Below are positions 7,865 through 64,000 of a stretch of DNA of 64,000 nt, one piece after another. Origin of the DNA: Octopus sinensis (taxonomy: Eukaryota); contig NC_042998.1 in assembly GCF_006345805.1 (NCBI RefSeq), positions 8,060,001-8,124,000 of the forward strand, given 5' to 3'. The number at the start of each line of letters is the position of its first letter. The first letter of the stretch is position 1. The notes under the pieces were generated by a model. The model worked only from the letters and a program-made list of their open reading frames with translations, was not told the origin of the DNA and made no database searches. A program made the position numbers and the translations under genes.

Positions 7865-8214
7865 ACATGCATACATACATACATACATGCATGCATACAT
7901 ACATACATACACACATACATACATACATACATACATACATACTTTGTGTGTAGATATGAAAGATTATATAAGTATATTAATTATACGATTCAAATTATAC
8001 AAAGAAGTTCGACAAATTCAATCCTATTTTTCGTAAATGGAGGATATTATATGATAATATGAAATAGAATATGTTTTATTCATTTTGCTGTTATTGCATG
8101 TTATTTTGTAATGTGTTATTACACACTACAAAAATTAGTAAGAACACCAAACCCATGTAATTCTAAAGTCACCTTTTTTCTATATTTAGTTCTTATTATA
8201 TTTTTTCTTATTGT

Positions 8215-8292
8215 GCTACTGATGAGTACTCTTTGACAACTCAGATTCATAAAATGAATTTATTGTCTTTCTGTACGAAACGATCGTATAGC
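8215..8292 (+). ncRNA. Type I hammerhead ribozyme (PLE-type, palindromic stem III)
   Basis: Stem I GCTA/TAGC; CTGATGA 8219-8225; stem II GTAC/GTAC; GAAA 8277-8280; C-GATC-GTA with predicted cleavage after 8288. Confidence 0.75.
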
Positions 8293-9167
8293 GAAATGAA
8301 TACAAAGTATTATATTCCATATTAACACCTAATCTCTTCCATTTACGAAAAATATAACTAAATTTGTTGAACTTAAATCATATACTCAATATATATATAT
8401 ATATATATATATATTAACACACACACACACATAGGGAGAGATGGATATTTAAGCAAATAGATTTGTAATGTATTTCGGTGTGTGTGGTATTTGTTGTATA
8501 CATATATGTATGTATGTATGTAGTATGTATGTATGTATGTATGTATGTATGTATGTATGTATGTATGTATGTATGTATATATATATATATATATGTACAT
8601 ATAGATATATACATACATATTTGAATATACACATATATACATGCATTCGACATACATGCATGCATACATACATACATACATACATACATACATACATACA
8701 TACATACATACATACATACATACACACATACATACATACACACATACATACATACATACATACACACATACATACACACTTGCATTCATTACAATGTAAA
8801 TAATCATTACTTGAAATTTTAAATATGTAAGTGATTATGTTGCGAATGTTTCGGTTCCGAAACTCAATATTATGAATAAGCCTTAGAAATCTATCTGTAA
8901 AATACAAATTATTTTTCCATTTGGAGCTAAAAAAAAACAAGTATTTTTGGTTGTTTAGGAATGCATTGATGTAAGCGTATGTGTATGCACACATACACAA
9001 ACACAGACTCGTATACATGGCTATATATACATAGGTATATATAAAAATGTATATATACACATATGTACATATATATGTGCATATATATAAATGTAACTCT
9101 ACATACACACACATTTATATATACATATTTATAGGTATGTAAGTCTTCTATGTATATATACATATTG

Positions 9168-22371: not shown

Positions 22372-22386
22372 ATATATATATATATA

Positions 22387-23392
22387 TATAAGGCAAGGAG
22401 AAAAATGGAGAAGATAATTATTGACAAACTGACAAGCAACAGCTTACAAACATCAGCTAGATCTATTTATTAATTACAATCATATGAATAGATAGATATA
22501 TAAAGAAGAATAAATGAGTGAATATAACTCTACTCTTACACCGGTATTCTTAAATTTGTTTTAACGCTATTGGTTTTAAATATGAGCTGACCAATTAAGT
22601 TGTAGGACTGACATTGGCCTTACCCTATTCATCATAGGGGTATTATGATGAAACGCTTTGTTAATAAAGAATAACATCACACTTAAATTACACCCAAATT
22701 ATTTCTTCATTGATATAACTACGTATTGATTTCCCCAAATATGTTTACATAAACTAAATTTTATTGCTATTCTATTGCATAGATTTTAGTTTCTAACTAA
22801 TGATCCCTGTTATATGGATCATCCCATTAACCCCACCCTATAACGTTTTATCTCTACTATATCCTCCATTAGATTGAAATAAGATGTGATCTCACAACCT
22901 GTGGATATTATTTTGAAATTTACTTCTTTACTATTTTTATACTATTTTTTTTATTATTTTATTATACTTTTTTTACTTGTTTAATTCTTGCCACTATGAA
23001 CTCTCTGATGAAGCTTCGGAGTTCAGTTTTTGTTCATTTTTGTACAATCTTTGTATAATCCGGGAATGGTGCGTCAACTTTGGCATGCTGGACCCCCCAA
23101 AGTAGAAACGGCTGTAAGTAGAGTTATATTCACTCATTTATTCTTATTTATGTATTTATTCATATGATTGTAATTAATAAATAAATCTAGTTGATGTTTG
23201 TCAATTAATTATCTTCTCCAATTTCTTCCTTCCTTATAAATTCTGGCAAAATTTTTCTTTACCTCTATACACACATACCTATTATTCAATTGCACTATTG
23301 CCTTACAACAGTAAGCATTTGGATATACATAGGTATACGTCCAGTAGTATATTGGATACTTGTTATCCCTTAGATGGTTATCTAACCTCTAA

Positions 23393-23396
<4 letters not shown>
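22387..23396 (+). mobile_element. Non-coding PLE pLTR/retrozyme-like insertion (family B), copy 1, with inverted 5' arm
   Basis: 22387-22540 is an inverted copy of about 23113-23238; contains an HHR; (TA)n on both sides. Confidence 0.75.
22999..23125 (+). ncRNA. Hammerhead ribozyme with ~90-nt stem II (family B)
   Basis: AACTCT stem I; CTGATGA 23005-23011; stem II GCTTCGG/CCAAAGT (GCTTTGG in copy 2); GAAAC-GGCT-GTA 23105-23116; then AGTAGAGTT. Confidence 0.6.
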
Positions 23397-23465
<69 letters not shown>

Positions 23466-24686: not shown

Positions 24687-24733
<47 letters not shown>

Positions 24734-31550: not shown

Positions 31551-32029
31551 CCATATATTGGTTTTCGTTTCAAATTGATGCGGGAACAATTGATGCAACA
31601 GCACATAATGAACATTATAAAAACTGCCGCGCAGATGTATACTTAGTAATTATACTTTCTCCAATGGGTAAAAAGAGATGAAGTTTGGTGGGGAAAAGGA
31701 AGTCGATTACACCGAACCCCAGGGCCCGACTGGTACTTATTTTATCGGTCCCGAAAGGATGAAAAGCAAAGTCGACCTTGGTAGCTTTAGGAATCAGAAC
31801 GTGTAGACGAACGACATGCCTCAAAGCATGTTGCCAGGCGTGCTATCGATTCTGCCAGTTCGCCCCTTTAGCATATTTAGTAATTATAAAACTTTTATAT
31901 ATACATTGTTATATTTCGGAATGGTCATATTGCCAGTTTAGCCAATAAAAACACACGCACTATATATTTGGTGTTATTTTGCTTCAGTGATATTTATTTT
32001 TTACATTAATCTTAATCTTATTTCGGCCA

Positions 32030-32868
32030 AATTCAATATTTTGATGGCAGACCTCGTCAGAATAATGAGAAATGTGTCACGCATGTGCGAGCCTACAGAA
32101 TTAAAGAGACACATACAGTATTTCATTCACCGCATGCAGTTCTCAGGTTACAGCCATAAAGAAAGGATCAGAGTATACAAAGGAGCCATGAAGAAATTTG
32201 ATAATATATTATGTAATGATAGGAATGGGATTTGCCCACTCTATAGGAACAAGTCATGGAACACTATAGAAAGGACAAAAAAGAAAATAGGGAAGGCCAA
32301 CTCTTGGTATGATAGCCATAAATACCAGAGTGTCATGTTCGTTGACACCACCCCTGGAGGTGAACTGGCGAACCGCTTTAGAAGGACCCTAGATAAATTT
32401 AAACTAAGAATTAAGGTTGTTGAAAAGCCAGGCAACCCTATCAAATCTATAATTGGTAGAACCTATCCTTTTAGTAGAACCCTCTGTACGGATAACTATT
32501 GCACTGTATGTAGATTTAGCCCACAAACAAACTGTAAAGCCAGAAATGTAGTCTATAGTATAAGATGTATAGAGGGACGATGCAGTAACAAGACAGTAAC
32601 ATACGTAGGGGAAACGGCAAGAAGCATAGGAGAGCGGGTGAATGAACATTGGAGACAACTCAAGGAAGGTAAAAGCTCATCGATTCTGTACCAACACGCC
32701 GAACAGGAACACGGGGGATCAATCAATAACATAGAGATTAAGATATTGTCCACACATAGAACAGATGCAACAATTAGACAAATTACAGAAGCTACACATA
32801 TAATAGAAAATAAACCTAGCCTGAATAGAAAACTAGAATGGAGCAATAGCACACACCACAACATATGA
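32030..32868 (+). CDS. PLE RT thumb, Cys-rich linker and C-terminal GIY-YIG endonuclease (5'-truncated, frame open)
   Basis: FVDTTPGGELA, CTDNYCTVC..NC, NVVYSIRC...YVGETARSIGERVNEH, H...EH, EA..I...PSLN. The first ~14 aa of the track ORF (from 31987) come from the inverted pLTR. Confidence 0.9.
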
Positions 32869-32985
32869 CGATAGAGGATCCCGAAAACATAATAAATACA
32901 CAGATAAATAAACAAATAGAAATGAATAACTATATATATGTATATATATCTATGTATGTATATGTATGTATATATATATATATAT

Positions 32986-33017
<32 letters not shown>

Positions 33018-33371
33018 ATGTGTATATATGTGTGTATATGTATATATATATCTTTTTTTTCGATTAGATTTATTATTATTATTACTAATATTGTTGTTAT
33101 ACATACATACAAGCATATGTAATGATAATAATGGGTGGATATAAACACATGAACAAAATTAGAACAAAAGCAACAACAAAAACAAAATACAAATTACATG
33201 AATGTATATAAACAGAAGATACAAATATTACAGGCATCCCCCACACACACACACTAAATAAACATAGACGCACATAGAGATATAAGCATGCGCAAATGAA
33301 GACATACAATAGAAATACAAAATGGCTGACGGTTAGTAAGGAGAGACACAAATAAGTGAGAAGAAAACAAA

Positions 33372-33416
33372 GGACCACTGATGCGGTCACAGGAGTGTGA
33401 CGAAAGAACTCTGGCC
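33372..33416 (+). ncRNA. Hammerhead ribozyme, variant core CUGAUGC, in the 3' pLTR
   Basis: CTGATGC 33378-33384; stem II GTCAC/GTGAC; GAAA 33402-33405; predicted cleavage CTC after 33411; sense to the PLE ORF. Confidence 0.75.
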
Positions 33417-33627
33417 GAAATAAGATTAAGATTAATGTAAAAAATAAATATCACTGAAGCAAAATAACACCAAATATATAGTGCGTGTGTTTTTATTGGC
33501 TAAACTAGCAATATGACCATTCCGAAATATAACAATATCTGTTTCAACACACGACTTCACATAAAAAATCTTGCACAACAAATATTTAAAAGTTTTATAT
33601 ATACATATATACATATATATATACATA

Positions 33628-33852: not shown

Positions 33853-33978
33853 ATATATATATATATAATATATATATATAATATATATATATATAATATA
33901 TATATATATACATACACACATACATACGTACATATATATAACGAACTAACTGTTACTTTCTCAGATGCAGCACGGATT

Positions 33979-34029: not shown

Positions 34030-35905
34030 TTAAACTTAAATGTTGCAGTGAATCGAACGGCTTTTTTGTGTTTCTTAAATGGCTTATAAACACCTTCCAC
34101 GCTGCAATTGTTTTCGTTCCAGCACACGATCTCAGATCAAATCACTTGCTATGCAAGTACATCACCGTAATATATATATATTATTGCTGTAAAATAAATT
34201 TCCTCAAATACAGCTTATAGTATTGTCAAACTGACGCTGATATATAAATTTGCAACACTGGTTAGATTTAAATGCATTTTCTTTTAGACATTTTTCCCCC
34301 GCAGCAAGTTTTCTCTAAATCATACCAAATTTCATGAATATGTTTACCCATGAAGTTCTTTACATTCTCCTTTATAAATGCAACATAACTCAAAGAAACC
34401 TATCTGAAAGCAGAAAAGGTTTGTAAGAAATTGGATTTTGAAATAATTTTGTAATTCAAATACATAATAATATACCTTAAAATTCGGAGTAATAAATATA
34501 TCAGAACAAAATAGCCAGAGGAAATAACTAAATAAACTACACATAAAATGCATATTATTATTATTAACTGTTTCATTTCGGTGTCATGGTGATGAATTAA
34601 ACGCTAACGCGATGTTAGGGAAATTTCAAAGTCTGCAGATAAGTTCTGTAGACACGGAGTGCTGCCGAATAGAAGCAGCTCATTGTTGTTGAGGAATAAA
34701 AAAAATAAACGTTTTACTTCAAATACGATCTTATCGTTAGAGGCGGTTTAAAGTTTTACGGAACAAGAATCATGGGAACACGGTGAAACAAGAAGTTTAA
34801 TGATTAAAGAAATACTTAGTAGAATATGCCTTTCATCTATCAAACTGTAGATTGCATAAATACTGAAAAACTTCAAAGAACATATTTGGGGATTGGGAAA
34901 TAATGGATATATTACATCAGTACACAACAGATGCTACTGTAAAATTCCTACGGATGTACATGTATAATGGCTGTCTCTGTAGCTAAGAAATATCACTAAT
35001 AATATCTTTACCTATAATAATATCTAATAATATCTTTACCTCTGCAGCATTACTCAAAGAAAAATATCAGAAACCAGAAAAGATTTGTAACAAATTGGAT
35101 TTTAAAATAATTTCGTAATTCAAATAGATTATCTTATACGATAAAATTCGATGCATTAGATACATCAGAACAAGATAGCCCGAGGAAACCACTAAATAAA
35201 GCACACATAAACTATAATTTATCATTCAACATCGTTTTTGACAGTGAGTCAATTTTGGTTGATAATTGGAGCCTCTATCGGTCAAGGCTGGTCACACATC
35301 AGCACATGCCTAGGCAAAGTTTTTATTTGAGAAAGACGCAGTTTTGCCATGCATGCAACGCTTCCCTGCGGTACCGATTTTATTCAGGGGAAAAGTCTAC
35401 TCACTTGAACTAAACCAGGGTGACGCATGCATTACTATCACAACACAAAGAGTCGGAAAGGTACCGCGCCCCTGAAAGAACAAAAGCTGAAGTTGACTTC
35501 GGTGGGATTTGAGCTCGGAACGCTGAGATTCTGAACAAAAATCATGAAACGTTCTATCCAACGCTCCAAAGGACTGTTATAAAATAAATTAACACTTGCT
35601 TCACAACTTCATAGTTCGGTGTTCAGTACCACCGTGTGGTACCTTTGGCTAGTGTCCTCTATTATAGCATACCACCGACTAAAAAATTCTTCAGTAGACT
35701 TGATAGAAGGAAACTGGATGAAACCTGCAGTGTGTATTTATGTATATATATATATATATTATATATATATATAATATATATATCAACAATCAAGGAACGG
35801 CCATAATAGGCCATTCACCCACTAGAAATAACAGCCAAAGCTTCAACCGCAAATAAAAATCAATTCCGTAAACCAGGAGAAAATTTAAAAAACATTTACC
35901 CTGTA

Positions 35906-36012
35906 ATTTCTTATACGATGCACCGTTTCATCTGCTGTTTAATGGTAAACTAACCTGATTAAATTAAATCAAGCCAATCTTCCATAGGCCCTCAGATTCT
36001 TCAGTAAGAAAT
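35906..36012 (-). ncRNA. Hammerhead ribozyme (family C, minus-strand copy)
   Basis: Reverse complement of 36528-36634. Confidence 0.85.
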
Positions 36013-36527
36013 AGCCAAGCCGGAACAGATATTTTCACGAGGCATTTCCGACCCTGCCAAGGCAATATCTGACCTAAAATTTTCAAATCATCGCACTCGC
36101 GCCAAATTTATCGGCAGCAAATAAATATAAGCCGTCGATTCCATTACGGAATTAACCAGAAAATTCATAATTAATCAATATAGGGTGGCAAAAAAATTTT
36201 GTAGAATTTTTTTGCCACCAGCGGCCTAGTGGGAAAAAATTAAATAGTCATAGACCATTTTTAAGTTCAACATCAACAATCAAGGAACGGCCATAATAGG
36301 CCATTCACCCACTAGAAATAACAGCCAAAGCTTCAACCGCAAATAAAAATAAATTCCTATATTGATTAATTATGAATTTTCTGGTTAATTCCGTAATGGA
36401 ATCGACGGCTTATATTTATTTGCTGCCGATAAATTTGGCGCGAGTGCGATGATTTGAAAATTTTAGGTCAGATATTGCCTTGGCAGGGTCGGAAATGCCT
36501 CGTGAAAATATCTGTTCCGGCTTGGCT

Positions 36528-36634
36528 ATTTCTTACTGAAGAATCTGAGGGCCTATGGAAGATTGGCTTGATTTAATTTAATCAGGTTAGTTTACCATTA
36601 AACAGCAGATGAAACGGTGCATCGTATAAGAAAT
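36528..36634 (+). ncRNA. Type I hammerhead ribozyme (family C)
   Basis: Stem I ATTTCTTA/TAAGAAAT; CTGAAGA 36536-36542; stem II ATCTG/CAGAT with a 58-nt insert; GAAA 36611-36614; stem III ACGGTGCATCGT; GTA cleavage after 36626. Confidence 0.85.
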
Positions 36635-36881
36635 TACAGGGTAAATGTTTTTTAATTTTCTCCTGGTTTACGGAATTGATTTTTATTTGCGGTTGAAGCT
36701 TTGGCTGTTATTCTAGTGGGTGAATGGCCTATTATGGCCGTTCCTTGATTGTTGATGTTGAACTTAAAAATGGTCTATGACTATTTAATTTTTTCCCACT
36801 AGGCCGCTGGTGGCAAAAAAATTCTACAAAATTTTTTTGCCACCCTATATTGATTAATTATATATATATATATATATATAT

Positions 36882-39096: not shown

Positions 39097-40184
39097 AGAA
39101 TCGGGTCTGACCCTTAGCTGTATCGTATGTATCAGGGTCAGATTTGCACGAAAGAATTTTTTTCCTTTTTTACTAAGGCATATTTCCGTCAGAGTGAGTG
39201 TCTGTTTGAAGTAGCGGCCGTGGTGAAATTTGGTTCTCCTTTTCGGAGGACTTATCTTTTGTTTTAGTATTCCTGGCCCAGGGTGTTTAAACTGGTCTAA
39301 ATTTTTTAATGAAATATAGTTCTTTATTTTGGCGTTGTGTGAAGGTTGCGTTGTCACTGAATTTATAGAGCGGGTTAGTTGTAAATTTCGGATTTACATT
39401 TCCAGCACATCTATCTATGTGTCCGCTGACCGGTATTTTGCGGTAATCAGGGTTTCTAATTTGTGATTTATGCACCGCCATCCTGTTACGTAAGCTATTT
39501 TTGTATGGCCTATATACTGCCTATTGCAGCCTGCGCATGTTATGACGTAAATTAAGTTTTCTGATGCGCAGGTGAAGTTTGTTCTAATGGTGAACTGGTG
39601 GCCTTGTTCCAGTATAAATTCTGATCCTTCTTTCAAGATGACACAGATTCCGCAGTTGGGCCTTCCACATTTTCTAACTGCTGGTTTTGTGGTTGATGTT
39701 GAGTGCAGTGTAGCTTGGGTTAAAATCCTTTTCAAGGATTTTGGTTGCCGTTTACTTTTAATGATGGTGTGTGTTTCGAGGATCCGGTTCATCTTTGGTC
39801 TCCCTTTAGTAGGGCTGTGCTTTGTAGTATGGTGTTGAAGGCCTCATTGTTGAGTGGGTTGTGTGTAGAGATGTAGGGAAGGGTTTTTAATTGTTCTTTC
39901 TTTTTTGGTTTTGTTTGTCTCAGGTCTTCTATACTTAATTTAAGTACCCGTTGGATTGCACTGTCTATTAGGGGCTGTGGATAGTTTCTATTTGTGAGTG
40001 TGGTTCTAAGTTCCTGGAGACGTGTGTGTCGGGTGTTTGTGTCTGATATATATATATATATATATATATATTCTTTTGCTTGATTGAATCATTTGACAGT
40101 AGCCATGCTAGAACACGGCCTTTAGTCGAACAAATCAATCCAGGACTTATTTTTGTAACTCTAGTTCTACATAGTTCGGGGCTC

Positions 40185-44409: not shown

Positions 44410-44808
44410 ACTCTTTTACTCTTTTACTTGTTTCAGTCATTTGACTGCGGCCATGCTGGAGCACCGCCTTTAGTCGAGCAAATCGACCCCAGGACTTATT
44501 CTTTGTAAGCCCAGTACTTATTATATCGGTCTCTTTTGTCGAGCCGCTAAGTGATGGGGACGTAAACACACCAGCATCGGTTGTCAAGCAATTCTAGGGG
44601 GACAAACACAGACACACAAACACACATATATATATATACATATATACGACAGGCTTCTTTCAGTTTCCGTCTACCAAATCCACTCACAAGGCATTGGTCG
44701 GCCCGGGGCTATAGCAGAAGACACTTGCCCAAGATGCCACGCAGTGGGACTGAACCCGGAATCATGTGGTTGGTTAGCAAGCTAATTACCACACAGCCAC
44801 TCCTGCAC
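44410..44808 (-). mobile_element. SINE family 2
   Basis: Matches the other family 2 copies. Confidence 0.85.
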
Positions 44809-47355
44809 CTATTACAAGGGGTTTTTTTTGTTTCAAGCAATGAATACCCTAGATTTAGCTATGATTCTTAAACTTTCCGAACGGGTGCTTTTACTCTTAA
44901 CATTGAAGAAGAAAAAAGAACTTGCGAGTAAGAATTATCAGCTGCCTAAACTAACCAATATAAGTAAGTCATCTGCAACTTGAAAACAAAAATGTTGCCT
45001 ATATATGACACTTTAAATATAAGGCATACGGATGCATGGGGTTTTTTGCAGATGTTTATCATTTGCATTTTTATTTGTCCAATGCTTCACTAAAACAGGC
45101 GAGAAATTTTGTGTTACAACAAAACGCGGACATAGATGGCTCCCAGTAAAGTCGTGCAAGAAACTACTAACACGTTTCATTGTTTTATTTTGCTTTTCTT
45201 TTACATAACTTAAAATTGTAAAGGCTTTTAAGAATTAATGTTTATATCTGCCCAGAAAACCTGTGAATAATTAACTACTCAGCATTTTCCATAAACAAAA
45301 TAAGATCCACGTAAACTTTAACTTTCAAGTAAAGTTGACTAATCGCAGTCGGTTCTAACATCTATTTTAGTAGAATCTAAATATAACAATATAAGACACA
45401 AAAAGAGAATTTTAACATTAAAATGTTTCAGGTAGTTTGATTATCCTCCTACACACAGTTTAAAGAACGCAGAAACAGTGGGACTTTAAAAACCAAACAG
45501 CACACACCTAAGGAGAAAAAAAGAAAGTAAACGGAAACACGAAAAATATATTTATATAATGACTTCTAAATTTTTGAAATTGTAATCTTTATATAAAGGC
45601 GGCTTGCTGGGTTGGTGTAGTTTGGCGAAATGGTTAAGAATCCCTCTTTGAAAGCACGAAACCCTGGTTTCAATCCCACGGCGGCGTAATATCATAACTA
45701 ATTTTCTACAGCTTCGAGTCGCCCATTCCTTGCAAGTGAAATTGGGTACACAGAAATCACAAACTCTTCAAAGGAATTGTAGCCGTAATTCAAAAGGTAC
45801 GTCCTTATCACACGCCGTGTCACGCTGATTCTCACTGAGATTTAAATAAAGGGTTGTGCAATACTTGACCACTTACATGTTAATTCAGGAACAGTTAATC
45901 AAACAACTGCATCTTCATCGTCGAATGACGAAGATTCGCCCCCAGCATACAGAGAAATTGTTCTTTATTTAGAACAGTAGAGTCTGATTTCAGCAGAGTA
46001 TATTTGCCAGCTATTTTTGCCAGATCGAGATACTAAATACATACAGTAATGTCATTTATACATTATCGATGGGAAATATTTCTGACTAAGGGCTCGTTAG
46101 CAAGATACTTTTGAGGCTTCAATCAGTGAAACTACATCGGGACACCATCCTTTTAGAAGCTACAAGACATTGCTTCATGTTCTCTTCAGCCTTAGAATAC
46201 TTCCACTTCGAACTCAGCTTGGAATAAACCCGGTAGTGATTTGTGCAGTAGTTAAAAGCAAATTCAGGATCTTGTTGTCTTTGTCCGAGTCATACTACGA
46301 GACTAATAGAAAATGTATGAAAAACTCGATCAATAGCACCAGCACTAAAGCCGCAGGCACTTAGTTTGTCTACAAAAAAGAATGCTTTCTTGCAATGTGA
46401 GACTGGCTAGCTCTGTATTCTAAGCGGTTTTAGAATTGCTTTTGGATGCTTTACCGCCTACTCATCAGTTCAAACGACCTTGTAAGTAATAAACCTGCTG
46501 ACAAAATCTTAATACTAGCGGAGCATTTATCCTCAAATTCTTTCTGTAGGCATCAATCATTTCCATCATGATCTCTTCCCCCATTCAGATCTCTTCGCAA
46601 CAAGACAAATTGAAAGATAAGAAAAATTCTCTAACTCAAGCCACTCAAAATTTGCACTTTATAATTTCAACACCTTGCAAAAGGTTTGTCCATTGTGACC
46701 TTGCATTACTTTGTTCTGTTCCCAAGAAAGGAAACCTTTATCAGCGGGTTACTTTGAAGCTACAAAGCTCATCGTTTCCATTTACAAAAGGATGTGAAAA
46801 ATTATAAACAAACAACAACATTGCTCTCTCGAATCTTTCAGCGTTGTAAATGATTTTCTATTAAGGCTTCTTCAGAACCATATTCATATATACTTTGTTT
46901 ATTACGTTCTATACTAATAGTATCTTGCCCTTGAAAACTTAATGAAAGAGCTTTCAAAATATGATAAATCTCCGGTATCTTTGTCTATTATAGCTCCACT
47001 AATAACTTGGCTCGGAAGCTTCCTGTCAAGTCTCGCTATCGTAAAATATGTTAACAAGTGCTGCGCTCTATTCTCGTATACAATCAAATCGGGATAATTT
47101 TAGTACTCGTTTATGTTTTCCCCTCCCTGTTTCTCTAAATTAACAGCCTATTAGGTTACTTCTAATGCTATACATTCCTATCCAAATAACACCATACTAC
47201 TCTTCTTCTACATTCAAACTTAATATGATCACAACATAAGCACATTTCAGTAGACGCATTTATTCTCTACCAATTGTGACTACAGAATAAAATGTCCATC
47301 TTAAACTTAGACAACACCAAATACACAAACATTACACATCTAAAACAAAAAACCT

Positions 47356-47660
47356 GGATCTTTTCGGTTTGAACGGCAGTTTTTTCTAGCGGTGTCATAT
47401 AAAATTGTCACCCATAATTATGACCCTAGTATCGATCTATTGCATTTCAATGTCTTAGGGTTAGGATTAGTTAGGGTTTGGGGTGGAGGAAGGGTATCTT
47501 TTTTTTCTTCGTAAATATAAATAAACCCAATTTGTTTCTTAAACGAGGAACATTTTCATACAGCACAGAATGTTTTTTACCTCAATAAACGTCACTGATT
47601 GGTTGAAATTGCAGAACTTGAAGAAAAAAACAACAACAATACATAACTATACTAGGAATT
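47356..47660 (+). mobile_element. Merlin-like MITE, truncated
   Basis: Left TIR GGATCTTTTCGGTTTGAACGGCAG and internal TTAGGG repeats; right TIR missing. Confidence 0.75.
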
Positions 47661-48384: not shown

Positions 48385-48997
48385 TGTGCATGTATGATTT
48401 TTATATAACGTATCTGTATGTATGTCTGCGTATATTTCTGTGTCCATGTGGGCGTATTAGACAGGATGTTAGCAAAAGAAAATGCTGTTTCAGCAACTTC
48501 CATCTCACACTAAGGAAACATACTCTGTTGGATTACGTACCTAAACTTTCGTTTGAACTATTTATGCTTCGTATGTATGTTCCCGTCAAATTCCTCTACG
48601 GACGCAGTATTTTCCTCGCTGGGAGGTATGTTGTATTAGCACAGCCATGCTGTGTGTGCTTAAGGAGTTCGCTTCGCAACAACGTGGGTCTGGCTGCTAT
48701 CCTATCGCATAGTACATAGGCCAAGTGTCTTTTACTATTACTTTTATTAATACATACCTTGTAAGTGGAATTTATCAGTGGGGAAACTATGCGGAAGTTC
48801 ATAGCGTGCGTGGCTGTGTGGTGGTGGCGGCGTGCATGTATGCATGCGTTTGTGTTTCACCGATATAAATCGGCAAAAGATTAAAAAATTCGTGAAAGAA
48901 AAGAGGAAGCACGAACGAAAGTAACGGTGTTTTACGAACGAATTACTGTTTTTATGACATAGCAATAACGATAACAGTGAATATTGAAACAAATTTT

Positions 48998-49407
48998 GGA
49001 TCTTTTCGGTTTGAACGGCAATTTTTTCTAGCGGTGTCATATGAAATTGTCACCCATAATTATGACCCTAGTATCGATCTATTGCATTTCAATCTGTTTT
49101 AGGGTTAGGGTTAGGGGTAGGGGGAAGGGTATATTTTTTTTTTCACAAATGTAAATAAACCCAATCTGTTTCTTAAACGAGGGACATATTCATACGGCAC
49201 AGAATGTTTTCACCTCGATAGACGTCATTGATTGGTTGAAATTGCAGAAATTGAAGAAAAATAACATATCTTACAAACTATAGAATTTTCTCAATAAAGC
49301 CAAGAGAAAAAGATGTTTTATAAACACATTCTACCAGTATACGAAGTTTAAAAGTGTTTAGTTACGTGGAAATTATGTTAAAACTGCCGGTCAAACCGAA
49401 AAGATCC
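48998..49407 (+). mobile_element. Merlin-like MITE with internal telomeric repeats
   Basis: TIRs GGATCTTTTCGGTTTGA...TCAAACCGAAAAGATCC; TSD CAAATTTT/CAAATTTC (7 of 8 match); internal TTAGGG repeats. Confidence 0.85.
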
Positions 49408-52067
49408 CAAATTTCATTGAATACTTTTAACTCTATCTATTCGAAAAAACATTTTTTTAAAAATAGAATACATGTCCTATACACTATTACTTTTTAATGT
49501 ATGACTACATTTCAACAAGAGCACCGAATATGTTTCGGCAAGTATGAGGTATCAAAGCACTCAGGAACAAGGTTTTTCAACTTTTAGTTTCAATGTGTGT
49601 AGCTAGAACAAACCTGCTGCTGTTATTTCATTGTGACTGTCAGTAGACCTTATTTCAGTGTGTATTAGTTAATATAACAGCCGTGAATAAGCAGAGTATT
49701 TTCGATAAAAATATTACATTCCTGGGACGGATGTTATTTTCATCAGAATCCTTATCTTCCATCATCTATGCTTTTGAATTTGCAGATAACCGCAAGGAAT
49801 ATAACGATGTACATTTCGTTAGAAACTATTTATTTTTGTGTTAAATTGCATAGTAGTCTTTTTGCGGTCTGTCAAGTATTTAGAGAATGATAGAATATAA
49901 TGAAATAAAGAAGACCTTTAGCGTGTGTATGTGAGCGATTTCTTTATTATCCATAAATAACTATACATAGAATTGAGCAATACAACTGATGGGGTCAGTA
50001 AGCGGTATGATTTTACATATAATATGCCTTTAAAAATTTAAAAACAATATATAAAAATCGAATGGACAAAACAATACCAAAACAATACAAATGAAGCGAT
50101 GATCAGGCCACATTTCGACCCCACAAGCCCCGATCTACCGCTGGTACCTTTTTTTTCTTTTTTTTCCGGTCTATTCACACGGTTCCTTGCACGCGCAACA
50201 CTCGTACAACATGCTTCCATCTCTTTTGGAACGTACACTCCGACAGACACCTTTTCTTCAGCCACAGCTTCCTTTTCAAATGAAAAGAAAAAAAGATCGT
50301 AAATTGTGACCAGAGACAAAGCTGCCTTTCTTTAACGTGTGTATGTGAGCGTGTATACATACACATCCCATTGGCGAAGTCTCGGATATTAAATAAAGTG
50401 TTAAACATTTGTAGTATGCAAATTAGTGGACCCACATCCCGGAATCTACTGGATCTTATGAACATATAAATGGACTGCCTACTTGTTTCAATGTTATTGA
50501 TCAAATGATGTAGACATCTGCGATGTAATCCCAATAAAGATTGGAAAATCTTCGGAGAAATAGTTTGATTTGCTATATTTATTTGTAGGTTTACATTATT
50601 GTACTTTATCAGTATCATTGCTCACTGACAAGGTAGGTAGTATGATATATACAAATGTCGTGTGTGTGTGGGTAAAAACGAGAGATGAAATTCTAAATTT
50701 GCTCCGGCTCCTAATTGAAAAAAAATATATGACTATCAAGTTTCTTTGGTTAATATGCTACTAAAATTGTACGTTAACAGTCGTGCAGAAAACGTATGTA
50801 TATGGAGATCCTGAAGGATGAAAAAAGTTTGGCAAAATACTGGTAGTCCGACGCATGGAGATAACTGGCAGAGGAATAGTGGTTAGAGGCGATCACTTTT
50901 GGTGGGCAAATTTGTGCAAGAAAGGAGCACGCTTTGAACGTAGTTTTAATTTGCTTTGTGAAAGTATATAACAAGTGTGCACCTACCGATTTATGGAATA
51001 ACTGTTTAGCTTTTAAGTATTTTTATGGTTTCCGAGAAATGGAATAGCGTAAGCTTTAATCGAGTCGATATAATTAAATTTAACGTTTTACGGGAATATT
51101 GTTGGACGTATTAAAAGTTTTCAAAATCTATTTATATTCACTATAATAAGTTAATAAGTCCAGTAAACTTAAAAGATGTCTATTTTTAAGACTACATAAA
51201 TAACGGTTTCAAATTTTGCCACAAAGCCAGCAATTATTTGGGAGGGAATAAATTGATTACACCAATCCCAGTATTGAACTGGTATTTATTTCATTGACCT
51301 TGAAAGGTTGAACGGTAAATCGACTTCGGCGGAATTTGAACCCAGAACAGAACGAACTGGAAGAAATGCCGCCCGCAAGGCATTTGGTTAGACAGTAAAT
51401 AAGTAATTCTTTCTACTTTAGGCGCAAAACTTGAAATCTTTGGAGAGGTGGCTGATTTATTACATACACACCTGTGATCAACTGTTATTGATGATATTTC
51501 ATCGACTCCGAAAGAAAGAAAGGCAAACTCGACCTCGGTAGAATTTGAACTCAGAACTTAAAGCCTGAAGAATTACCACTAAGCATTTTGTACCGACACG
51601 GAAACGATTCAGACAGCTCGCCACCTTATAGTATATAAATAATACGATGAATTCTATACCGGTAAAATCTCCTGAAAAATCGGTTAATCTCTTGTAATGA
51701 ACGAAATTTTAGATTTTTAGGACAACTGTGTATTATTATGGCTTTTAGAAAAAGTAGTTTAGAATGCAATACAAAACATATTTAATGAGTAGCATTTTCA
51801 AGTAGATTTCCATTACGCTTAACTTTAACAATGTATTTAATGAAAAATACACGTATAGAGAAAAAGATTAGGGACATTAGGACAACGTATTTTCACAGAT
51901 ATTTCTGTTTCGTTCTTATATCTAGTGCTTCATCATATAACAGAGAAAAATACCTCATCAGTATTCACGTAGCAGTAGTCAAGATGAATTACTATATTAA
52001 AAGCCGAACGCACCATCAATTTATATGTGTGTGTGTGTGTGTGTGTGTATGTTTAATATTGCTGAGA

Positions 52068-53697: not shown

Positions 53698-53701
<4 letters not shown>

Positions 53702-54098
53702 AGGAGTGGCTCTGAAGTAAGTAACTTGCTTACCAACCACATGGTTCCGAGTTCAGTCCCACTGTGTGGCACCTTGGACAAGTGCCTTCTACTATAGCCT
53801 CAAGCCGACCAAAGCCTTGTGAGTGGATTTGGTTGACGGAAATTGAAAGAAGCCCGTCGTATATATGTATGTATATATATGCATGTGTGTGTGTGTTTGT
53901 GTGTCTGTGTTTGACGCCCCCCCCCCAACATCGCTTGACAACCGATGCTGGTGCTTTTTACGTCCCCGTATCTTAGCGGTTCGGCAAAAGAGACCGATTG
54001 AATAAGTACTAGGCTTACAAAGAATAAGTCCTGGGATCGATTTCCTCGAGCAAAGGCGGTGCCCCGGCATGGCCGCAGTCAAATAAAAGAAATAAAAG
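53697..54098 (+). mobile_element. SINE family 2
   Basis: GCGCAGGAGTGGCTCTGAAGTAAG head through an A-rich tail. Confidence 0.85.
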
Positions 54099-54132
54099 AT
54101 ATATAATATATACGTATATGTATATATGTTTA

Positions 54133-54475: not shown

Positions 54476-54495
54476 TTAAATTTGATATATGTATA

Positions 54496-54553
<58 letters not shown>

Positions 54554-54558
54554 TATAT

Positions 54559-55313
54559 ACATATATACAGTGTACATTTAAACACGTAAGAGGTAGCCAT
54601 CATAGGACTACCTACACGCTAGAGAGGACAGTTAAATTCCGAACGACTATTAGAGATAAAAATCGAAGGGATGGAAAAATAAAAACATTTACCATCTAAC
54701 TCCTGTTTTTATTTTTTTCATTACCTCCGATTTTTATCTCTAATAGTGGTTCGGAATTTAACTGTCCTCTCTAGCATGTAGGTAGTCCTATGATGGCTAC
54801 CTCTTATGTGTTTAAATGTACACTGTATATATATGAATAATATATAGTCTATTGACTAAATTTTTACACGCTAGGCCACTGGTAATGGAAATTTCTAATA
54901 TTTCCGATTACCCTTTGATAATATTAAATATTAATTATTGATAAATTTTTGGATAATTTTCGAAACGAAAACGCCGACATATTAATTTGTTGCCGACAGG
55001 AAGCTGCGCTTGCGCGGTAGATTTGAAAAATTAGAATGTATAAGCACGGGGCATATACTGGATTACCTCGTGTATATATATTTAATCTAAGGTGTACCTG
55101 CTGAAGAAGGCTTCGCCTAGCAAATTATTTTATTTGCTAAAAAAAAAGTCTGAAACTATTGGTCCAGGAGTTAGTAAATGTTTATATTTTTCATTCCCTT
55201 CGATTTTTATCTCTAATAGTGGTTCGGAAATGTTACTATCCTCCCTAGCGTGTAGGTATGATGACTACCTCTTATTTATTTAAATGCACACTGAATAATA
55301 TAAGGTCTATTGA
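54559..55313. mobile_element. Head-to-head HHR-containing pLTR/retrozyme insertion (family D, ~473-nt period)
   Basis: 54559-54705 is inverted relative to about 54706-54835; about 54706-54855 is directly repeated at about 55180-55313; HHR at 55097-55168. Confidence 0.8.
55097..55168 (+). ncRNA. Type I hammerhead ribozyme (family D)
   Basis: CCTG-CTGAAGA(55101)-AGGCTT...AAGTCT-GAAAC-TATTG-GTC/CAGG; cleavage after 55164. Confidence 0.8.
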
Positions 55314-55330
55314 CAAAACGCTTTTTGCCT

Positions 55331-55392
55331 TAATAGCTGATGAGATACCGGAGCAGACTTCATTCCCGGTATCGAAACTCTGAGTTTTATTA
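55331..55392 (+). ncRNA. Type I hammerhead ribozyme (family E)
   Basis: TAATAG-CTGATGA(55337)-GATACCGG-loop-CCGGTATC-GAAA-CTCTGAG-TT/TTATTA; perfect 8-bp stem II. Confidence 0.85.
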
Positions 55393-55542
55393 TGACAACC
55401 AACTAATTGTCACATCCATTTATTCTTTTACTTGTTCCAGTTACTTGACTGTCACCATGCTGGAGCACCGCCTTAAAGGGTTCTAATCGAAGAAATCGAT
55501 CTCAGTACTTATTCTTTGTAAGCATACACACACACACACATG

Positions 55543-56387
55543 TTCTGGGTGAAAATTGGTCACACAATCAACGAAGAGTATATTGTCCACGAAAATGTCC
55601 TGGACACCTTCAATTTGGAGGACCCCCATAGAGCGTCCACGAAGTGCTGAAGTGCTACAACAAGTGCGTTGAAGTTATAGGACCTTATTTTGAAGGAGAT
55701 TAGAGTTTTGTATTTCTTTGAAATTAATAAATGTCTCTCCGGAAAAAGTCTCAAGTCCTCTGGAATGCGCTTGTATATAAAAGTATATTATACACACACA
55801 TGTGAGACATTTATTAATTTCAAAGAAATACAAAACTCTAATCTCCTTCAAAATAAGGTCCTATGACTTCAATGCACTTGTTGTAGCACTTCAGCACTTC
55901 ATGAACACCCCATGGAGGTCCTCCAAATTGAAGGTGTCCAGGACATCTTCGTGGACAATATACTCTTCGTTATCTGTGTGACCAATTTTCATCCAGAAAA
56001 TTGTGAACGTTCTCAATCAGCTCTAATGAACATCTTGTAGCAGTGAAAAACAAATGCTCGGCTCATACAAGTTCATCTATAAGCTATCTGGAGCATTTCC
56101 TGAATTTTTGTAGAGTCTTTACCCTGTTTAACACAAAACTTTATTGCGTAGCGTACTTCCTAATTATTTTCATGTTCCGATTGCATTCTTCAAAGTAGTT
56201 AGCTGCGTCAAACTGTGTTTATCAGGGTGTTCTCAAAGTGCTGTTACAGCCGTATGGAATAAAACAAACAGTTGGCAGGTCAGATTATTAGATGTACTGT
56301 AATGATATACTAAATCTACAATAATCTAGGTCAGCTATGACTGCCTCTCATAAACAAGTCTGAAACCTTCTGAAATGCACTTCGTAG
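55543..56387. mobile_element. Two mariner-derived remnants, tail-to-tail
   Basis: 55543-55737 is inverted with 55804-55998 and encodes LKCYNKCVEVIGPYFEGD* (mariner C-terminus). TIR-like ends with TA at about 55775 and 56387. Confidence 0.7.
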
Positions 56388-58023: not shown

Positions 58024-58243
58024 GTTTCTTCTTTACTACCCACAATGGGCGAAACACAGAGAGGACAAACAAACGGATTAAGTCGATTATATCGACCCCA
58101 GTGCGTAACTGGTACTTATTTAATCGACCCCGAAAGGATGAAAGGCAAAGTAGACCTCGGCGGAATTTGAACTCAGAACGTAGCGGCAGACGAAATACTG
58201 CTAAGCATTTCGCCCGGCGTGCTAACGTTTCTGCCAGCTCACC
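58024..58243 (-). mobile_element. SINE family 1 inserted in (GATA)n
   Basis: Reverse complement of family 1. Confidence 0.85.
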
Positions 58244-58246
58244 GAC

Positions 58247-58856: not shown

Positions 58857-59593
58857 GGATCTTTTCCTTTTGAACGGCTGTTTTCAACACAATTTCTAGT
58901 TAACTAAACGCTTTTAAACTTCGTTTTTTCTCTTGGCTTTCTTGAGAAAATTGTAATTTGTAAGTTTAACGTAGTTTTATTTTTCGAATTTTAACCAATC
59001 GATGGCCTGTATTTAGCTAAAATCATTCGCTGCGTCTAAAACTGAAACAACATCCTGTCACTGACCCTAACCCTAACCCTACACTAACCCTAACCCTAAC
59101 ACTAACCCTAAATTTTAGCCCTTCGTTTTTTTTCTTAATTGTTAAATTAATTTAATTGTTACGCGTGTGTCTAAACTTATTCGTTTTGTTTTTGTTTTAA
59201 GATATGAGATACACATGTATTGTTTAAAATATTTTCCATTGCTTAAGAAAAAAAAAACGAAAGGCTAAAACGAAAGCAATGGAAAATAATTTAAACAATT
59301 AACAAACAAAATAATTCTATAATTTTATACACACGCTTTCCGTACGTAAACACAACAGTGACAGGATGTTGTCTCAGTTTTAGACGCAGCAAATGATTTT
59401 AGCTCAATAGAGGCGATACATTGGTTAAAATTCGAAAAATTAAACTACGTTAAACAAACAAATTACAATTTTCTCAAGAAAGCCAAGAGAAAAAAATGTT
59501 TTATTTTGACACATTCTACCAGTATACGAAGTTTAAAAGTGTTTAGTTAACTAGAAATTGTGTTGAAAACTGCCGTTCAAAAGGAAAAGATCC
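58857..59593. mobile_element. Merlin-like MITE, longer foldback subfamily with (CCCTAA)n
   Basis: TIRs GGATCTTTTCCTTTTGAACGGC/GCCGTTCAAAAGGAAAAGATCC; perfect 8-bp TSD TCTAAATC; inverted similarity extends about 200 bp. Confidence 0.85.
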
Positions 59594-62163
59594 TCTAAAT
59601 CTCTCAAAAGGAGACTACGGCAGTAGTACTGCATATTAATAGTTATCGCCAGTCTAACATGGCTGTCCAGGAAAATATGACGAATGCTGCCGTTGATTAG
59701 CTCCAAGAGGCTATCGCCTCTAGCTAGCTATGTGACACACGAACCTGCATCCATAAATAACCGTTGAACACTGGGGTCGATATAACCGATTTATTCTCTA
59801 CCCCACCCCGCAAAAAAAATAATAATTTCATACTGTGTACCTATAATTGAAAAGACTATCTATTTTATCAGTATTTATAAACAAGTGTTAGTAAAAAGAA
59901 ACCAATTGTAACAGTAATTCTATTATTCGTTTGCTTGTTTTAGTCATTGGACAGCAGCCATACTGTCGCAACGTTCTGATGGGTTCAGTCGATTTAAACT
60001 TATCTCATTGTTTGAGTCTAGCGCTTATTCTATCGGGCCCTTTTTGCCGAACCACTAATGCTACGAGGAAGCAAATCCATTCTCAAATAGTGCTAGAAGA
60101 ACATAAGCACACATGCACACATCCACAGAGGCTTATACACACATACATGCATATATACAGACACACATGTACATAGACATACACAATGGTAAGATTCATA
60201 CACGCGCACATACGCAAATATTTACAGACAACCTAATTAAAAATGATTATTCATGCGGTAGATTTTTGTGAAATAATTTCCTTAAAATTTTTTGAATATC
60301 TTCTAAATTTAGTAAAACGCAAGGTAACATACGTCATTGTAAATTATGCATTATCACACGGAGCAACTTTTTTTTTCGTCTTTACATTCTGTGTTCAAAT
60401 TCCACCGTGGTCGACTTTGCTAATTAATGATGTAATTAACTTATCCCCACCACCAAAAAGTTTTAGGCCTTACGCTAATATCAGAAAAGATTATATCATA
60501 CGGCAAATTGGTAGACTCTTAGATCACCGGAAGGATGCTTCTGAGGTCACTTACCACTGGGCCCGACATTTTCATCTTTTTGAGGTCGATAAAAAAGTAA
60601 CAATCCTAGGCGGTATCTATAAAAATATCGGCGCAGATGTCTTGCAGTATTCGTTTCCGCTCTTTGCGATCTGAGCTCAAGTACCGTTGTAACCACCATG
60701 TCCCGTTTAACATCACTGCCTGTCATCTTGGGTGCCTTAAGCGGAGTTCTCTCTGTTGCAAACATTTGATCCAGATCTCCAATCTTTGGATATTTTTATC
60801 CCTCTCTTCAGTCTTTAAGGTACTATAACTTGTCATAAGTCCTACGTTCCTCTTGACTAAAAAAGATTACAACACACCGCCCATTGACATAACATTCCTT
60901 TTCATATGATGTTTCACAAACAAAATTCTACAACTGTATATTTATGAAATGTTTCTTAAATACATGTGTGTGTAATTATGTGTTTATTTCAAGATTTGCT
61001 TTTATTTACACTTGTGATCCTATTTCTTTGAGTGCTCAACTGAAACACCGAATGGCTATATTAATGCATATATGAGTGATGTAGAAAAGGAGTAAGGATC
61101 ATACAACACGTGTTATAATAATTTGGAACAACTGTCTTTCCTTCAGCAATTTTCCCAGAGCTAGTCAAGCATCACGAAACGGCGGAAGTCAGTAATAATA
61201 CTTAAAAGTTTTGGAAATAAATCATACATTTTGATTTATACATATAAAGGTATTTAGAAATATTACTATCTCGCTGCGATATAGTTTGTCAACCGAGATG
61301 GGACAAAAACGTTACTTTGATTACTACAATATTGGTTTCAAACTATGGCACAAGCCCAGCAATTTCGGATATGGGGGTGTAAGCTAATTACATTGACTTA
61401 TTTTGTCGACCTCAAAAGGATTAAAGGCAAAGTCGATCTTGGCGAAATTTGAGCTCAGAACATGGAGACGGATGAGATGTCGTTAAACATTTTGCTCGGC
61501 GTGCTAACAGTTCTACCAGTCCGCAACCATCATCTGCAGCAATATTACATGTATGATTAGCGTAGTTATGTACTTAGTCTTCTGTTGAAGAGGTGTACAA
61601 AAGGTTCTGACATCTACAATGATTAGTTATAGACTAAATTGTTCGTAAAAATTGCCGACGTAGCAATATAAGTTGGTACGAAGATTTTATTGCCAATTAA
61701 TCATACTTTCAAGCTATTTGCTGCAAATAAAAGAAATTATTTTGAAGCGCCGAATATAAAATTGTTAACGTATAAAACCCACCCGGACACAATGTGAGCA
61801 GCAGAGCGTATATTTAACAACTACCAGGTGTATTCTGTATGTAAAATGATAAATACACACTACATATTTTTTCTCTATCAGTTACCGGATAACATTACAA
61901 TACCTTTTTTTCTATTCCGCTATAAATACAAACGCTATTAGTGCTTGTATAACGTTAATATTGCTGAAGTGAGTTGAATAAATATTCCTTTTTGCTTCAT
62001 GCACATTATTATTTATTTATAAGCATCAAAGTGTCAAATTCTAGTCCCACATGATACATAATATGTTAACCATCCATATCAATATAGTCATTTCACAGAA
62101 TTGAGAGAGGCTCATATTAAGGGCTATGAGAATAGCAACAGGACATCTTATTTTTTAAAATTT

Positions 62164-62574
62164 GGATCTTTTCGGTTTGAACGGCAGTTTTTAAAAATAT
62201 TTTCCACGTAACTAAACACTTTTAAACTTCGTATACTGATAGAATGTGTTTATAAAACATCTTTTTCTCTGGACTTTATTGAGAAAATTCTATAGTTTGT
62301 AAGATATTTATTGTTTTTTTCTTCAATTTCTGCAATTTCAACCAATCAATGACTGTCTATTGAGGTGAAAACATTCTGTGCCGTATGAATATGTCCCTCG
62401 TTTAAGAAACAGATTGGGTTTATTTACATTTCTGAAGAAAAAAAGATACCCACCCCCCCACCCCTAACCCTGAAACAGATTGAAATGCAATAGATCGATA
62501 CTAGGGTCATAATTATGGGTGACAATTCCATATGACACCGCTAGAAAAAAATGCCGTTCAAACCGAAAAGATCC
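62164..62574 (-). mobile_element. Merlin-like MITE
   Basis: Same TIRs; perfect 8-bp TSD TAAAATTT. Confidence 0.9.
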
Positions 62575-63072
62575 TAAAATTTTATTGCAATAAATAAAAT
62601 TTAACTACAACACAATAAGCTAGGAATGTTTGTTATAGTAGTGTGTTTATACTTTATCATGGTACTAGACAAGCACGCAGTCGAAATGCTGATTGACGTT
62701 TGTGAATATTTTAACCTTAAATTTATTGATATAATATTTATATACAAGCCCACGCAAGAAATATTTCATACATTCTTTTCCTTAATAAAATATGGTCACG
62801 GTCTGATTCTGGCCTGACGTTCAAAGTTACAATGAATTAGAAAGTTACATGCGTGAAGTAACTCACGTAAAGATAAAAATAACAGTCGAGACAGATTTGT
62901 ATACAGTCATTATTTTTACGCGTGCACAATTACGCTTATTGTATATATATATTTTATAGCATTACATAAAGCTTTGGTAACTTGTGTTATTTTCAAACTT
63001 CTACGTCGTCCTAATCGTAAACCACTATATCATCCTGCTTAAAATATCATTCCGGAAATGATATAAAGAAAA

Positions 63073-63504
63073 GGATCTTTTTCGGTTTGAACAGCAGTTT
63101 TTTCTAGCGGTGCCATATGAATTTGTCACCCATAATTATGACCCTAGTATCGATCTATTGCATTTCAATCTACTTTAGGGTTAGGGTTAGTTAGGGTTAG
63201 GCTAAGGGGTGGGGGAAGGGTATCTTTTTTTCTTCCCAAATGTAAATAAACCCAATCTGTTTCTTAAACGAGGCACATATTCATACGGCACAGAATGTTT
63301 TCACCTAAATAGACGTCTTTGATTGGTTGAAATTGCAGAAATTGAAGAAAAAAACAACAAATATCTTACAAACTATAGAATTTTCTCAATAAAGCCAAGA
63401 GAAAAAGATGTTTTATAAACACATTCTACCAGTATACGAAGTTTAAAAGTGTTTAATTACGTGGAAATTATTTTAAAAAACTGCCGTTCAAACCGAAAAG
63501 ATCC
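63073..63504 (+). mobile_element. Merlin-like MITE with TTAGGG repeats
   Basis: Same TIRs; perfect 8-bp TSD AAAGAAAA. Confidence 0.9.
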
Positions 63505-63552
63505 AAAGAAAATTTTAAGGAAATCATATCGGCTATATTTCAAGTTGATTTA

Positions 63553-63778
63553 CTTATTTCTTTATTGCCCACAAGGGGCTAAACATAGAGGGGACAAACA
63601 AGGACAGACAAACGGATTAAGTCGATAATATCGACCCCAATGGTACTTATTTAATCCACCCCGAAAGGATGAAAGGAAAAGTCGACCTCGGTGGAATTTG
63701 AACTCAGAACCTAACGGTGGACGAAATACGGCTATGCATTTCGCCCGGCGTGCTAACGTTTCTGCCAGCTCGCTGCCT
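63553..63778 (-). mobile_element. SINE family 1
   Basis: Reverse complement of family 1. Confidence 0.85.
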
Positions 63779-64000
63779 TACAAGTTGATTTACTATTCAG
63801 GTGTCTTGCTGTCCGTCTGTCTGTCTATCTACGTGTTTGTGTGTCTTGACAGACTTATAGCTGGGGGTAAGCAGAAACTGCCAGGTCACTGTCAACCTTC
63901 GCCTTATGAAAATTAATAAGTATGTAACCCACTAAAATGTGTTGATTAACCTTTCAGTTTAATAATAAATAGGGTTTATGAATAACCTAACATAAAAACA

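Follow-up and report, generated by a model that had tools for sequence, protein, structure and literature searches.

In a stretch of 64,000 nucleotides of Octopus sinensis DNA (hereafter the window; AT-rich animal DNA, dense in microsatellites) lies a small repeat element, D, in which a short inverted arm begins at the very base that follows a predicted hammerhead cleavage site. Was this end made by the ribozyme, and from what kind of RNA was the element copied? The best explanation overall, to which we give a probability of about 0.6, is that D was copied by the RT-endonuclease of a Penelope-like element (PLE) from ribozyme-cleaved linear RNA. The locus consists of the following features:

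54485..54567, no strand: (TA)n microsatellite, the likely target, flanking the 3' end of the inverted arm of D
54568..54705, minus: inverted short arm of D (M), 138 nt, from hammerhead +1 to the putative priming site (ACACTG)
54704..54705, no strand: microhomology of 2 nt, common to the 5' ends of both arms
54704..54825, plus: plus-arm head of unit 1 (C1), from about +15 to +17, cleavage site absent; ends ACACTG
54826..54835, plus: 10-nt (TA)4TG insert at the priming site, without counterpart in copy 2 and like the left flank
54836..55096, plus: non-coding unit body, collinear with the 490-nt family
55097..55168, plus: type I hammerhead, cleavage after 55164
55165..55293, plus: head of unit 2 (C2), +1 to +129
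55294..55326, plus: one-sided 3' extension ('tail') of 25-33 nt, missing from the inverted arm

The junction itself was examined first by its letters. According to the initial annotation, the minus arm ends at 54705 and begins with the sequence after GTC (55165 on), and both coordinates and sequence are right. The final plus-strand bases of the arm are AACTCCTG, ending at 54705, so that the arm begins CAGGAGTTAG. Exact copies of this 10-mer occur in the window only at 54696-54705 (minus) and 55165-55174 (plus). At up to one mismatch, three matches were found in the window against 2.28 expected; the 10-mer alone is thus not rare, and the evidence lies in an alignment of 143 columns, in which the minus arm and the sequence after the hammerhead site are identical at 118 positions (82.5%, local alignment). 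Its first aligned base is exactly +1 relative to the scissile bond, and the -1 base is a mismatch. Owing to the 2-nt microhomology at 54704-54705, the physical breakpoint falls at +1 to +3. At its other end the arm proper stops at 54568, and 54559-54567 is (TA)n.

The plus arm lies head-to-head with M and reads through the hammerhead. Its length, first put at about 600 nt, was measured as about 615 nt: its start is at 54704/54706 and its end at 55318-55326, which corresponds to +154 to +162 of the next unit. A partial tandem results, 54708-54860 recurring at 55181-55318. The proposed period of about 473 nt was recovered as a spacing, but it includes the 10-nt TATATATATG insert (54826-54835), present in the first copy only, and the unit is therefore about 458-467 nt long, the upper figure (467 nt) being our own arithmetic. 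The two arms have about 120 nt in common, and M and C1 together form a palindrome of 132 nt that is 91% complementary. Altogether the locus holds 1.3 units with one D hammerhead and is not an array. The unit is non-coding (longest ATG ORF 27 aa; GC 0.33). No target duplication was found around D, and its right end lacks the (TA)n that adjoins the left end; the two arms may for this reason not stem from one event. Apart from the related family described below, no further copies of D were found in the window.

The ribozyme had been called intact. This is true of its core nucleotides, which are complete: stem I has 4 bp (55097-55100/55165-55168), followed by the core CTGAAGA (55101-55107), a stem II of 6 bp with an inner hairpin (55108-55113/55146-55151), GAAA (55152-55155) and GTC (55162-55164), while helix III is short and near-palindromic. 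The fold fared less well. With -12.3 kcal/mol it lies 5.4 kcal/mol above the MFE structure (-17.7 kcal/mol), its z-score is -0.14, and Rfam gave no hammerhead match: there were no matches at the gathering threshold in the whole window, and the 49 weak matches around D were hairpin or AT-repeat artefacts (miRNA precursors and similar). A complete core does not, consequently, mean an active ribozyme. A relaxed hammerhead scan of the window returned seven cores, where 30 block shuffles had 0.1 on average. Two of its cores look like chance and were set aside: that at 58559, whose core CTGACGT is broken, and that at 32060 (minus), which overlaps a PLE ORF on the opposite strand. As a negative control only, the exact 28-nt D pattern was searched in bacterial and archaeal genomes, with 0 matches. 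Five of six motifs have a helix III that is unstable by itself and self-complementary as a duplex; PLE hammerheads of the dimer type have a helix III of this kind (PMC4209133).

A second type I hammerhead adjoins D at 55331-55392 (plus), about 10 nt past the 3' end of D and 222 nt past its site. It is well-formed (core at 55337, stem I of 6 bp, stem II of 8 bp, GTT site after 55386), is not homologous to D or to anything else in the window, and may be the remnant of another PLE-type element beside the landing site of D.

D was introduced as an unrelated family whose monomer size, close to that of a 'family C', suggested a shared class of RNAs of about 470-490 nt. From its size, we took family C to be the unit of 488-490 nt, here called U:

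35782..36861, no strand: family U, unit of 488-490 nt, two over-unit arms head-to-head, 99% identical

U is a young family, as the identity of its arms indicates. D and U turned out to be collinear, with 58-62% identity and a local-alignment z of 13 without rearrangement, rising to 24 at most with a permuted unit (12.6 in a separate alignment test). The comparison is one of local alignments; a MAFFT alignment of the units was rejected, its hammerhead cores being out of register. As D and U are homologues, their similar size is a matter of descent and not a convergent RNA class. The U junction, moreover, is not at the cleavage site but at +46 and +218. A shared size class is thus not supported as an independent inference. 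'Unrelated' is correct for D with respect to the hammerhead elements at 8, 22 and 33 kb, to which no similarity was detected (local-alignment z -1.5 to -0.1), but not with respect to U.

Homology to U is informative about the ribozyme. Between the two hammerheads, both-sided changes that keep the pairing occur in two of four stem I pairs and four of five stem II pairs. Such compensatory changes are good evidence, as far as sequences can provide it, that the D/U lineage has kept a functional ribozyme. Between the core halves U has 67 nt and D 43 nt, the longer stem II insert of U making up most of the size difference. A hairpin just upstream of the 3' end also shows four both-sided changes in U (four sequences only).

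Which machinery moved D? Known PLE insertions have a partial tandem, an adjoining inverted 5'-truncated copy and a tail of 30-40 bp on one end (PMC8557442, PMC3846280); this architecture is also described in PMC8969392. All of it recurs in D. A type I hammerhead with core, stems and NUH lies in the terminal repeat, the partial tandem corresponds to a pseudo-LTR, the inverted 5'-truncated copy stands beside the 5' end (54568-54705, minus), and a tail extends 25-33 nt past ACACTG on the plus arm only, its right boundary being blurred. An ORF for RT and GIY-YIG, as an autonomous PLE would have, is absent from D, where the longest ATG ORF encodes 27 aa and tblastn with 13 PLE proteins gave no match. 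An autonomous PLE with a D-like pLTR was not found in the window either (D versus the PLE at 33 kb, z -1.3). PLE coding sequence is present nonetheless: the ORF at 31942-32868 matches an Octopus vulgaris protein of 803 aa, annotated as RT-domain-containing, with 94% identity over 202 aa, has a Cys-rich linker ahead of its nuclease and gives a GIY-YIG match that is weak (E 7e-4) and below the Pfam curated cut-off. A linker of this type has been described for the Neptune and Nematis clades (PMC8557442), and Octopus Naiad families are listed in the supplement of the same paper. In O. vulgaris, 31 recently active PLE families have been reported (PMC13282606, in the available text of which the word 'hammerhead' occurs 0 times). 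Two decayed fragments were seen elsewhere in the window, neither with an inverted arm beside it: a PLE-like nuclease/Cys-linker fragment at 39415-39843 (minus; weak tblastn, E 7e-4) and, by eye only, an RT-like PLE fragment at about 5600-5990 (plus).

As for retrozymes, D shares with them a non-coding unit of low GC with a type I hammerhead. It does not contain at least two consecutive units, each with a complete hammerhead, which is the criterion for an active element in 10.64898/2026.07.22.740005, and its 458-467 nt exceed the monomer range of 170-400 nt given in PMC7229834. At most, D can be called a monomer-type, 'retrozyme-like' offspring. D is not an autonomous PLE; we take it for a non-autonomous, retrozyme-like PLE passenger of a known kind, and its mobilisation by a PLE is very likely.

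Is such a junction general? Besides D and U, three hammerhead elements served for comparison:

31905..33586, no strand: element N, ORF-bearing PLE (GIY-YIG, Cys linker), 5'-truncated
8005..8385, no strand: element Y, hammerhead site after 8288; inverted arm 8089->8005 from +2
22384..23398, no strand: element X, duplicated at 23667-24685; arm overruns a degenerate hammerhead site

Among 33 local inverted pairs listed in the microsatellite-masked window, six different junctions are head-to-head and have a hammerhead that can be located; those of X and N that recur in duplicate at 23.8 and 24.9 kb entered the count once. Left out as untestable or of another class were the hammerhead-less palindromes at 29581-29887, 30025-30177, 37864-37902 and 55543-55998 and the terminal-inverted-repeat elements at 47-49, 58-59 and 62-63 kb. 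Relative to the scissile bond, the short arm starts at +1 in D and N and at +2 in Y, at -4 to -13 in X, at +46 in U and at +61 in the second N junction (23585, 23.5 kb). Half of the six junctions thus start at +1 or +2, for which P=8.4e-4 (5-nt window, ends uniform over 140 nt) with a window and a uniform null that were picked after the data were seen, and for six junctions only, from one window. When D is removed, two of five remain (P=0.012). The other half are off the site, and the sister family of D is among them.

Element N is the cleanest example of a cleavage-site junction in the window. Its inverted arm (32029->31905) starts at +1 of a hammerhead-like motif (33378; site after 33411) with 124/125 identity, and the insertion is bounded by an 18-bp target duplication (31887-31904/33587-33604). 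The motif was spotted by eye and missed by the scans; its core is a variant one, with C at position 9, which is not canonical, and with an extra base. PLE hammerheads do typically have an additional base between positions 9 and 10.1 (PMC4209133). Y is an older inverted hammerhead element with a perfectly palindromic helix III, its short arm covering +2 to +86. X had been considered as a further cleavage-site start, giving a tally of four in six, and was dropped when its alignment ran to -8/-13; the arm passes the site by 4 nt according to the exact run and by 8-13 nt according to the alignment.

The initial annotation had offered D as independent support for the mechanism of a 'family A', presumably one of the hammerhead elements at 8.0-8.4, 22.4-24.7 or 31.9-33.6 kb. 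Since D is unrelated to the elements at 8, 22 and 33 kb, its cleavage-site junction is indeed an independent case, and the same junction occurs in two further unrelated families; the over-unit arm of D, on the other hand, does not support a circle. Should family A be the 22-kb element X, its own junction is not a clean one.

The short arms agree at their 3' ends too: D +129, U +130, N +125, X +126 and Y +86. With D and U taken as one lineage, three of four lie within 6 nt (P=0.004-0.03). This is in line with internal priming at a fixed site (compare PMC11167929).

Other repeats surround these elements. At 21982-24923, two PLE-type families lie together in (TA)n, and this composite is present twice (period about 1306 nt, identity 93.5%, many small indels), through either a real tandem duplication or an assembly artefact. 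The hammerhead-less palindromes at 29581-29887 and 30025-30177 end in AT-rich simple repeats and may be inverted pairs of the PLE type with two short arms. At 55540-56001 there is a fold-back with arms of 198 nt, 93% complementary, one frame of which may resemble the C-terminus of a mariner/Tc1 transposase. A MITE-like family of about 420-440 nt with terminal inverted repeats (47355-47632, 48997-49414, 58857-59593, 62158-62592, 63073-63507) carries short internal runs of telomere-type repeats. An abundant SINE-like family of about 400 nt is found at 2713-3057, 18380-18794, 26886-27297, 31150-31550, 44408-44812, 53700-54099, 55419-55526 and other places, and a second abundant family, about 230 nt long, at 3209-3436, 18956-19379, 33629-33853, 58029-58244 and 63551-63781, some of its copies with an internal tandem duplication.

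How could ribozyme and insertion be connected? Our reading starts from what was directly observed: the anatomy of D, the +1 start of its arm, the homology to U with compensatory stem changes, and the +1/+2 start in two unrelated families. A tandem D transcript would self-cleave at one hammerhead and yield a linear RNA whose 5' end is +1, whereas the next D hammerhead, of the dimer type with a short helix III, would be left uncut. Because helix III is unstable alone, a single hammerhead should be slow once the first cut has been made, giving an RNA cut at its 5' end and internally read through; this slow step is drawn from the dimer model of PMC4209133. The PLE protein would then cut both strands of the AT-rich or (TA)n target and use both cut ends as internal primers for cDNA, at about 130 nt past the hammerhead site on one side and about 155-160 nt past it (with the tail) on the other. 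The cDNA primed in the first unit would run off the cleaved 5' end after 138 nt and become the inverted arm. Its free 3' end would finally pair with the longer cDNA through 2-4 nt of microhomology, which would account for the head-to-head junction and for a long arm that starts at variable positions. Microhomology of 2 nt was found at the junctions of both D and U and of about 3 nt at 23585, and at N it may reach up to 4 nt, judging from the reading frame and the protein match. That the long arm of D exceeds one unit would simply reflect a template longer than one unit, for which a linear partial dimer is enough and no circle is required. That the short arm stops at the scissile bond likewise points to linear cleaved RNA.

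We regard it as quite probable that the 5' end of the inverted arm of D was made by the ribozyme, and the full twin-priming route for D as slightly favoured. In anole, the PLE protein (of PAc) cleaves the two target strands and extends both, and its priming takes place internally, at a point past the hammerhead (PMC11167929). Against the model, hammerhead mutants of PAc, the one PLE for which in vitro work was found, inserted normally, cleavage being reported as dispensable in vitro, and RNA-seq reads neither began nor ended at the site (same source), and eight of nine Xenopus retrozyme dimers were without cleavage in vitro (10.64898/2026.07.22.740005).

Among the alternatives, a circular template, probably the mechanism meant in the initial annotation, holds up best, doubtful as it appears to us. 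Cleaved monomers would be ligated into circles of about 460-490 nt, reverse transcription over more than one round would give the over-unit arm, and a linear monomer belonging to the same complex would be the source of the short arm. Circles were put forward for PLEs and retrozymes in PMC4209133 and PMC7229834 (2014, 2020), hence the idea is not new. Family U fits it, with both arms longer than one unit and passing through a strong hammerhead (z -3.8), and with a repeated part identical at 85/86 positions; yet a homogeneous linear dimer accounts for U equally well. Folded as a circle, one period of D scores better than 40 shuffled versions (z -3.9, with -4.8 for U), a result that concerns folding only. 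In D, however, three equidistant unit heads are predicted by a circle, and instead copy 2 is an outlier lacking the (TA) insert. It has 8/18 private substitutions in the MAFFT columns (P=0.22) and two indels besides; when indels are counted after realignment by eye, the figures become 11/19 or 12/20 events (P=0.024 and 0.013). Gene conversion between the palindromic arms could mimic this divergence. Differences between M and C1 cluster near the junction, five in 25 nt versus three in 98 (hand count, P=0.009). An over-unit arm could be taken as a sign of a circle; with its differing repeated parts, and a (TA) insert breaking the arm at the inferred place of priming, D lends that idea no positive support.

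The same insert leads to a history of two events, which we judge improbable. Here a fold-back pair of 258 nt (M and C1, 54568-54825) would have entered (TA)n beside an older unit-plus-tail (54836-55326), and the arm of about 600 nt would accordingly not be one reverse transcript. The (TA)4TG insert sits exactly at the priming site, M and C1 both end in ACACTG followed by (TA)n, and they share characters missing from C2. A (TA) duplication of 7-8 nt is formally present, though trivial within a microsatellite, and PLEs tend to insert into or beside earlier copies (PMC6765202). What tells against two events is that the older copy would have to begin at the very base at which C1 stops. In any case, this history would leave the +1 start of M as it is.

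Somewhat less credible again is ordinary 5' truncation without any role of the ribozyme, the arm ending near the hammerhead by chance or by a stall of the RT on the folded, uncut ribozyme. PLE copies are routinely 5'-truncated (PMC8557442, PMC8969392), uncut RNA is the main substrate in vitro (PMC11167929), and the arm of X goes past its site into helix III, as expected of a structural stall. But in unrelated families two arms start exactly at +1 and one at +2, which is hard to reconcile with chance (P about 1e-3, or 0.012 without D), and a stem I of just 4 bp makes D a weak block. A stall on a folded stem I, moreover, would be expected to leave the arms a few nucleotides short, but they include the complete 3' strand of this stem and run as far as the scissile bond.

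Very unlikely, lastly, is self-priming on an antisense template, a version of which was put forward for PLE inverted junctions in PMC3846280, or a DNA-level fold-back after insertion, in place of a second priming on sense RNA: the M-C1 palindrome would suit a fold-back, but M has about 20 nt (+1 to +20) missing from C1 and so is not a fold-back copy of it, the 5' part of the long arm of N is ORF sequence unrelated to the short arm, and neither process predicts an end at a sense-strand ribozyme site.

Copying from ribozyme-cleaved linear RNA can be set beside known systems. D resembles endonuclease-containing PLEs (Penelope/Poseidon, Neptune, Nematis; PMC8557442, PMC3846280, PMC11167929) in having a type I hammerhead near the 3' end, a partial tandem, a head-to-head inverted 5'-truncated copy, a one-sided tail and, to judge by its left flank, a likely (TA)n target (theirs being AT-rich or (TA)n), and differs from them in having no ORF. 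The 3' end lies at a set distance past the ribozyme site in both, about 85-92 nt in PAc (by subtraction from positions in PMC11167929) and 86-130 nt in the elements of the window. The available text of these three papers holds no statement that the inverted copy starts at the ribozyme site. With metazoan non-LTR retrozymes (PMC7229834, 10.64898/2026.07.22.740005), for which PLE-dependent mobility and an origin from pLTRs have been proposed in the same papers, D shares the non-coding, low-GC (33%) unit and one type I hammerhead per repeat. Its unit is above the range of PMC7229834 but within the 51-972 bp of 10.64898/2026.07.22.740005, and unlike retrozymes it has 1.3 units and one hammerhead at the locus instead of an array. 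In the accessible parts of PMC7229834 'inverted' has 0 occurrences, and 'Octopus' is absent from the main text. R2 and L1Tc with HDV-like ribozymes (PMC6765202) are similar in that self-cleavage frees the element RNA from a longer transcript and sets its 5' end; the ribozyme and the retroelement class are different, the ribozyme is at the 5' end of the element, and there is no short inverted run-off arm.

Twin priming is familiar from 5' inversions of LINE-1, where each of two target ends primes a cDNA, microhomology joins the two cDNAs head-to-head, and the two parts barely overlap. The arms of D, by contrast, share about 120 nt, and the short one ends at the ribozyme site. A literature search combining Penelope with 'twin priming' gave nothing on the PLE mechanism, judged by titles and the beginnings of abstracts. 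More generally, the searched literature (without subscription papers, figures and some supplements) contained no statement of inverted arms of PLEs or retrozymes beginning at the hammerhead site, although specialists may already know of it.

As an element, D belongs to a known class and is unremarkable within it, and nothing is gained from the idea of a size class. What its junction contributes is a hint that ribozymes shape how such elements insert. The role of the hammerhead in endonuclease-containing PLEs has been described as unclear (PMC8557442), and the head-to-head inverted repeat has been ascribed, without a test, to antisense self-priming (PMC3846280). In general terms, we put at even odds that hammerhead-cleaved RNA is a real template in vivo and that the inverted pseudo-LTR is often a run-off cDNA to a ribozyme-made 5' end, started at a priming site about 125-130 nt downstream of the ribozyme and linked with a second cDNA through microhomology of 2-4 nt. 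If the scissile bond proves to be where inverted arms begin throughout a genome, this would be in vivo evidence that cleaved RNA is reverse transcribed. The role of the hammerhead and the origin of the inverted repeat would then be joined in one model, testable by a count of breakpoints, and genomic junctions would constitute a fossil record of ribozyme activity at single-nucleotide resolution, readable for any PLE family from assemblies alone.
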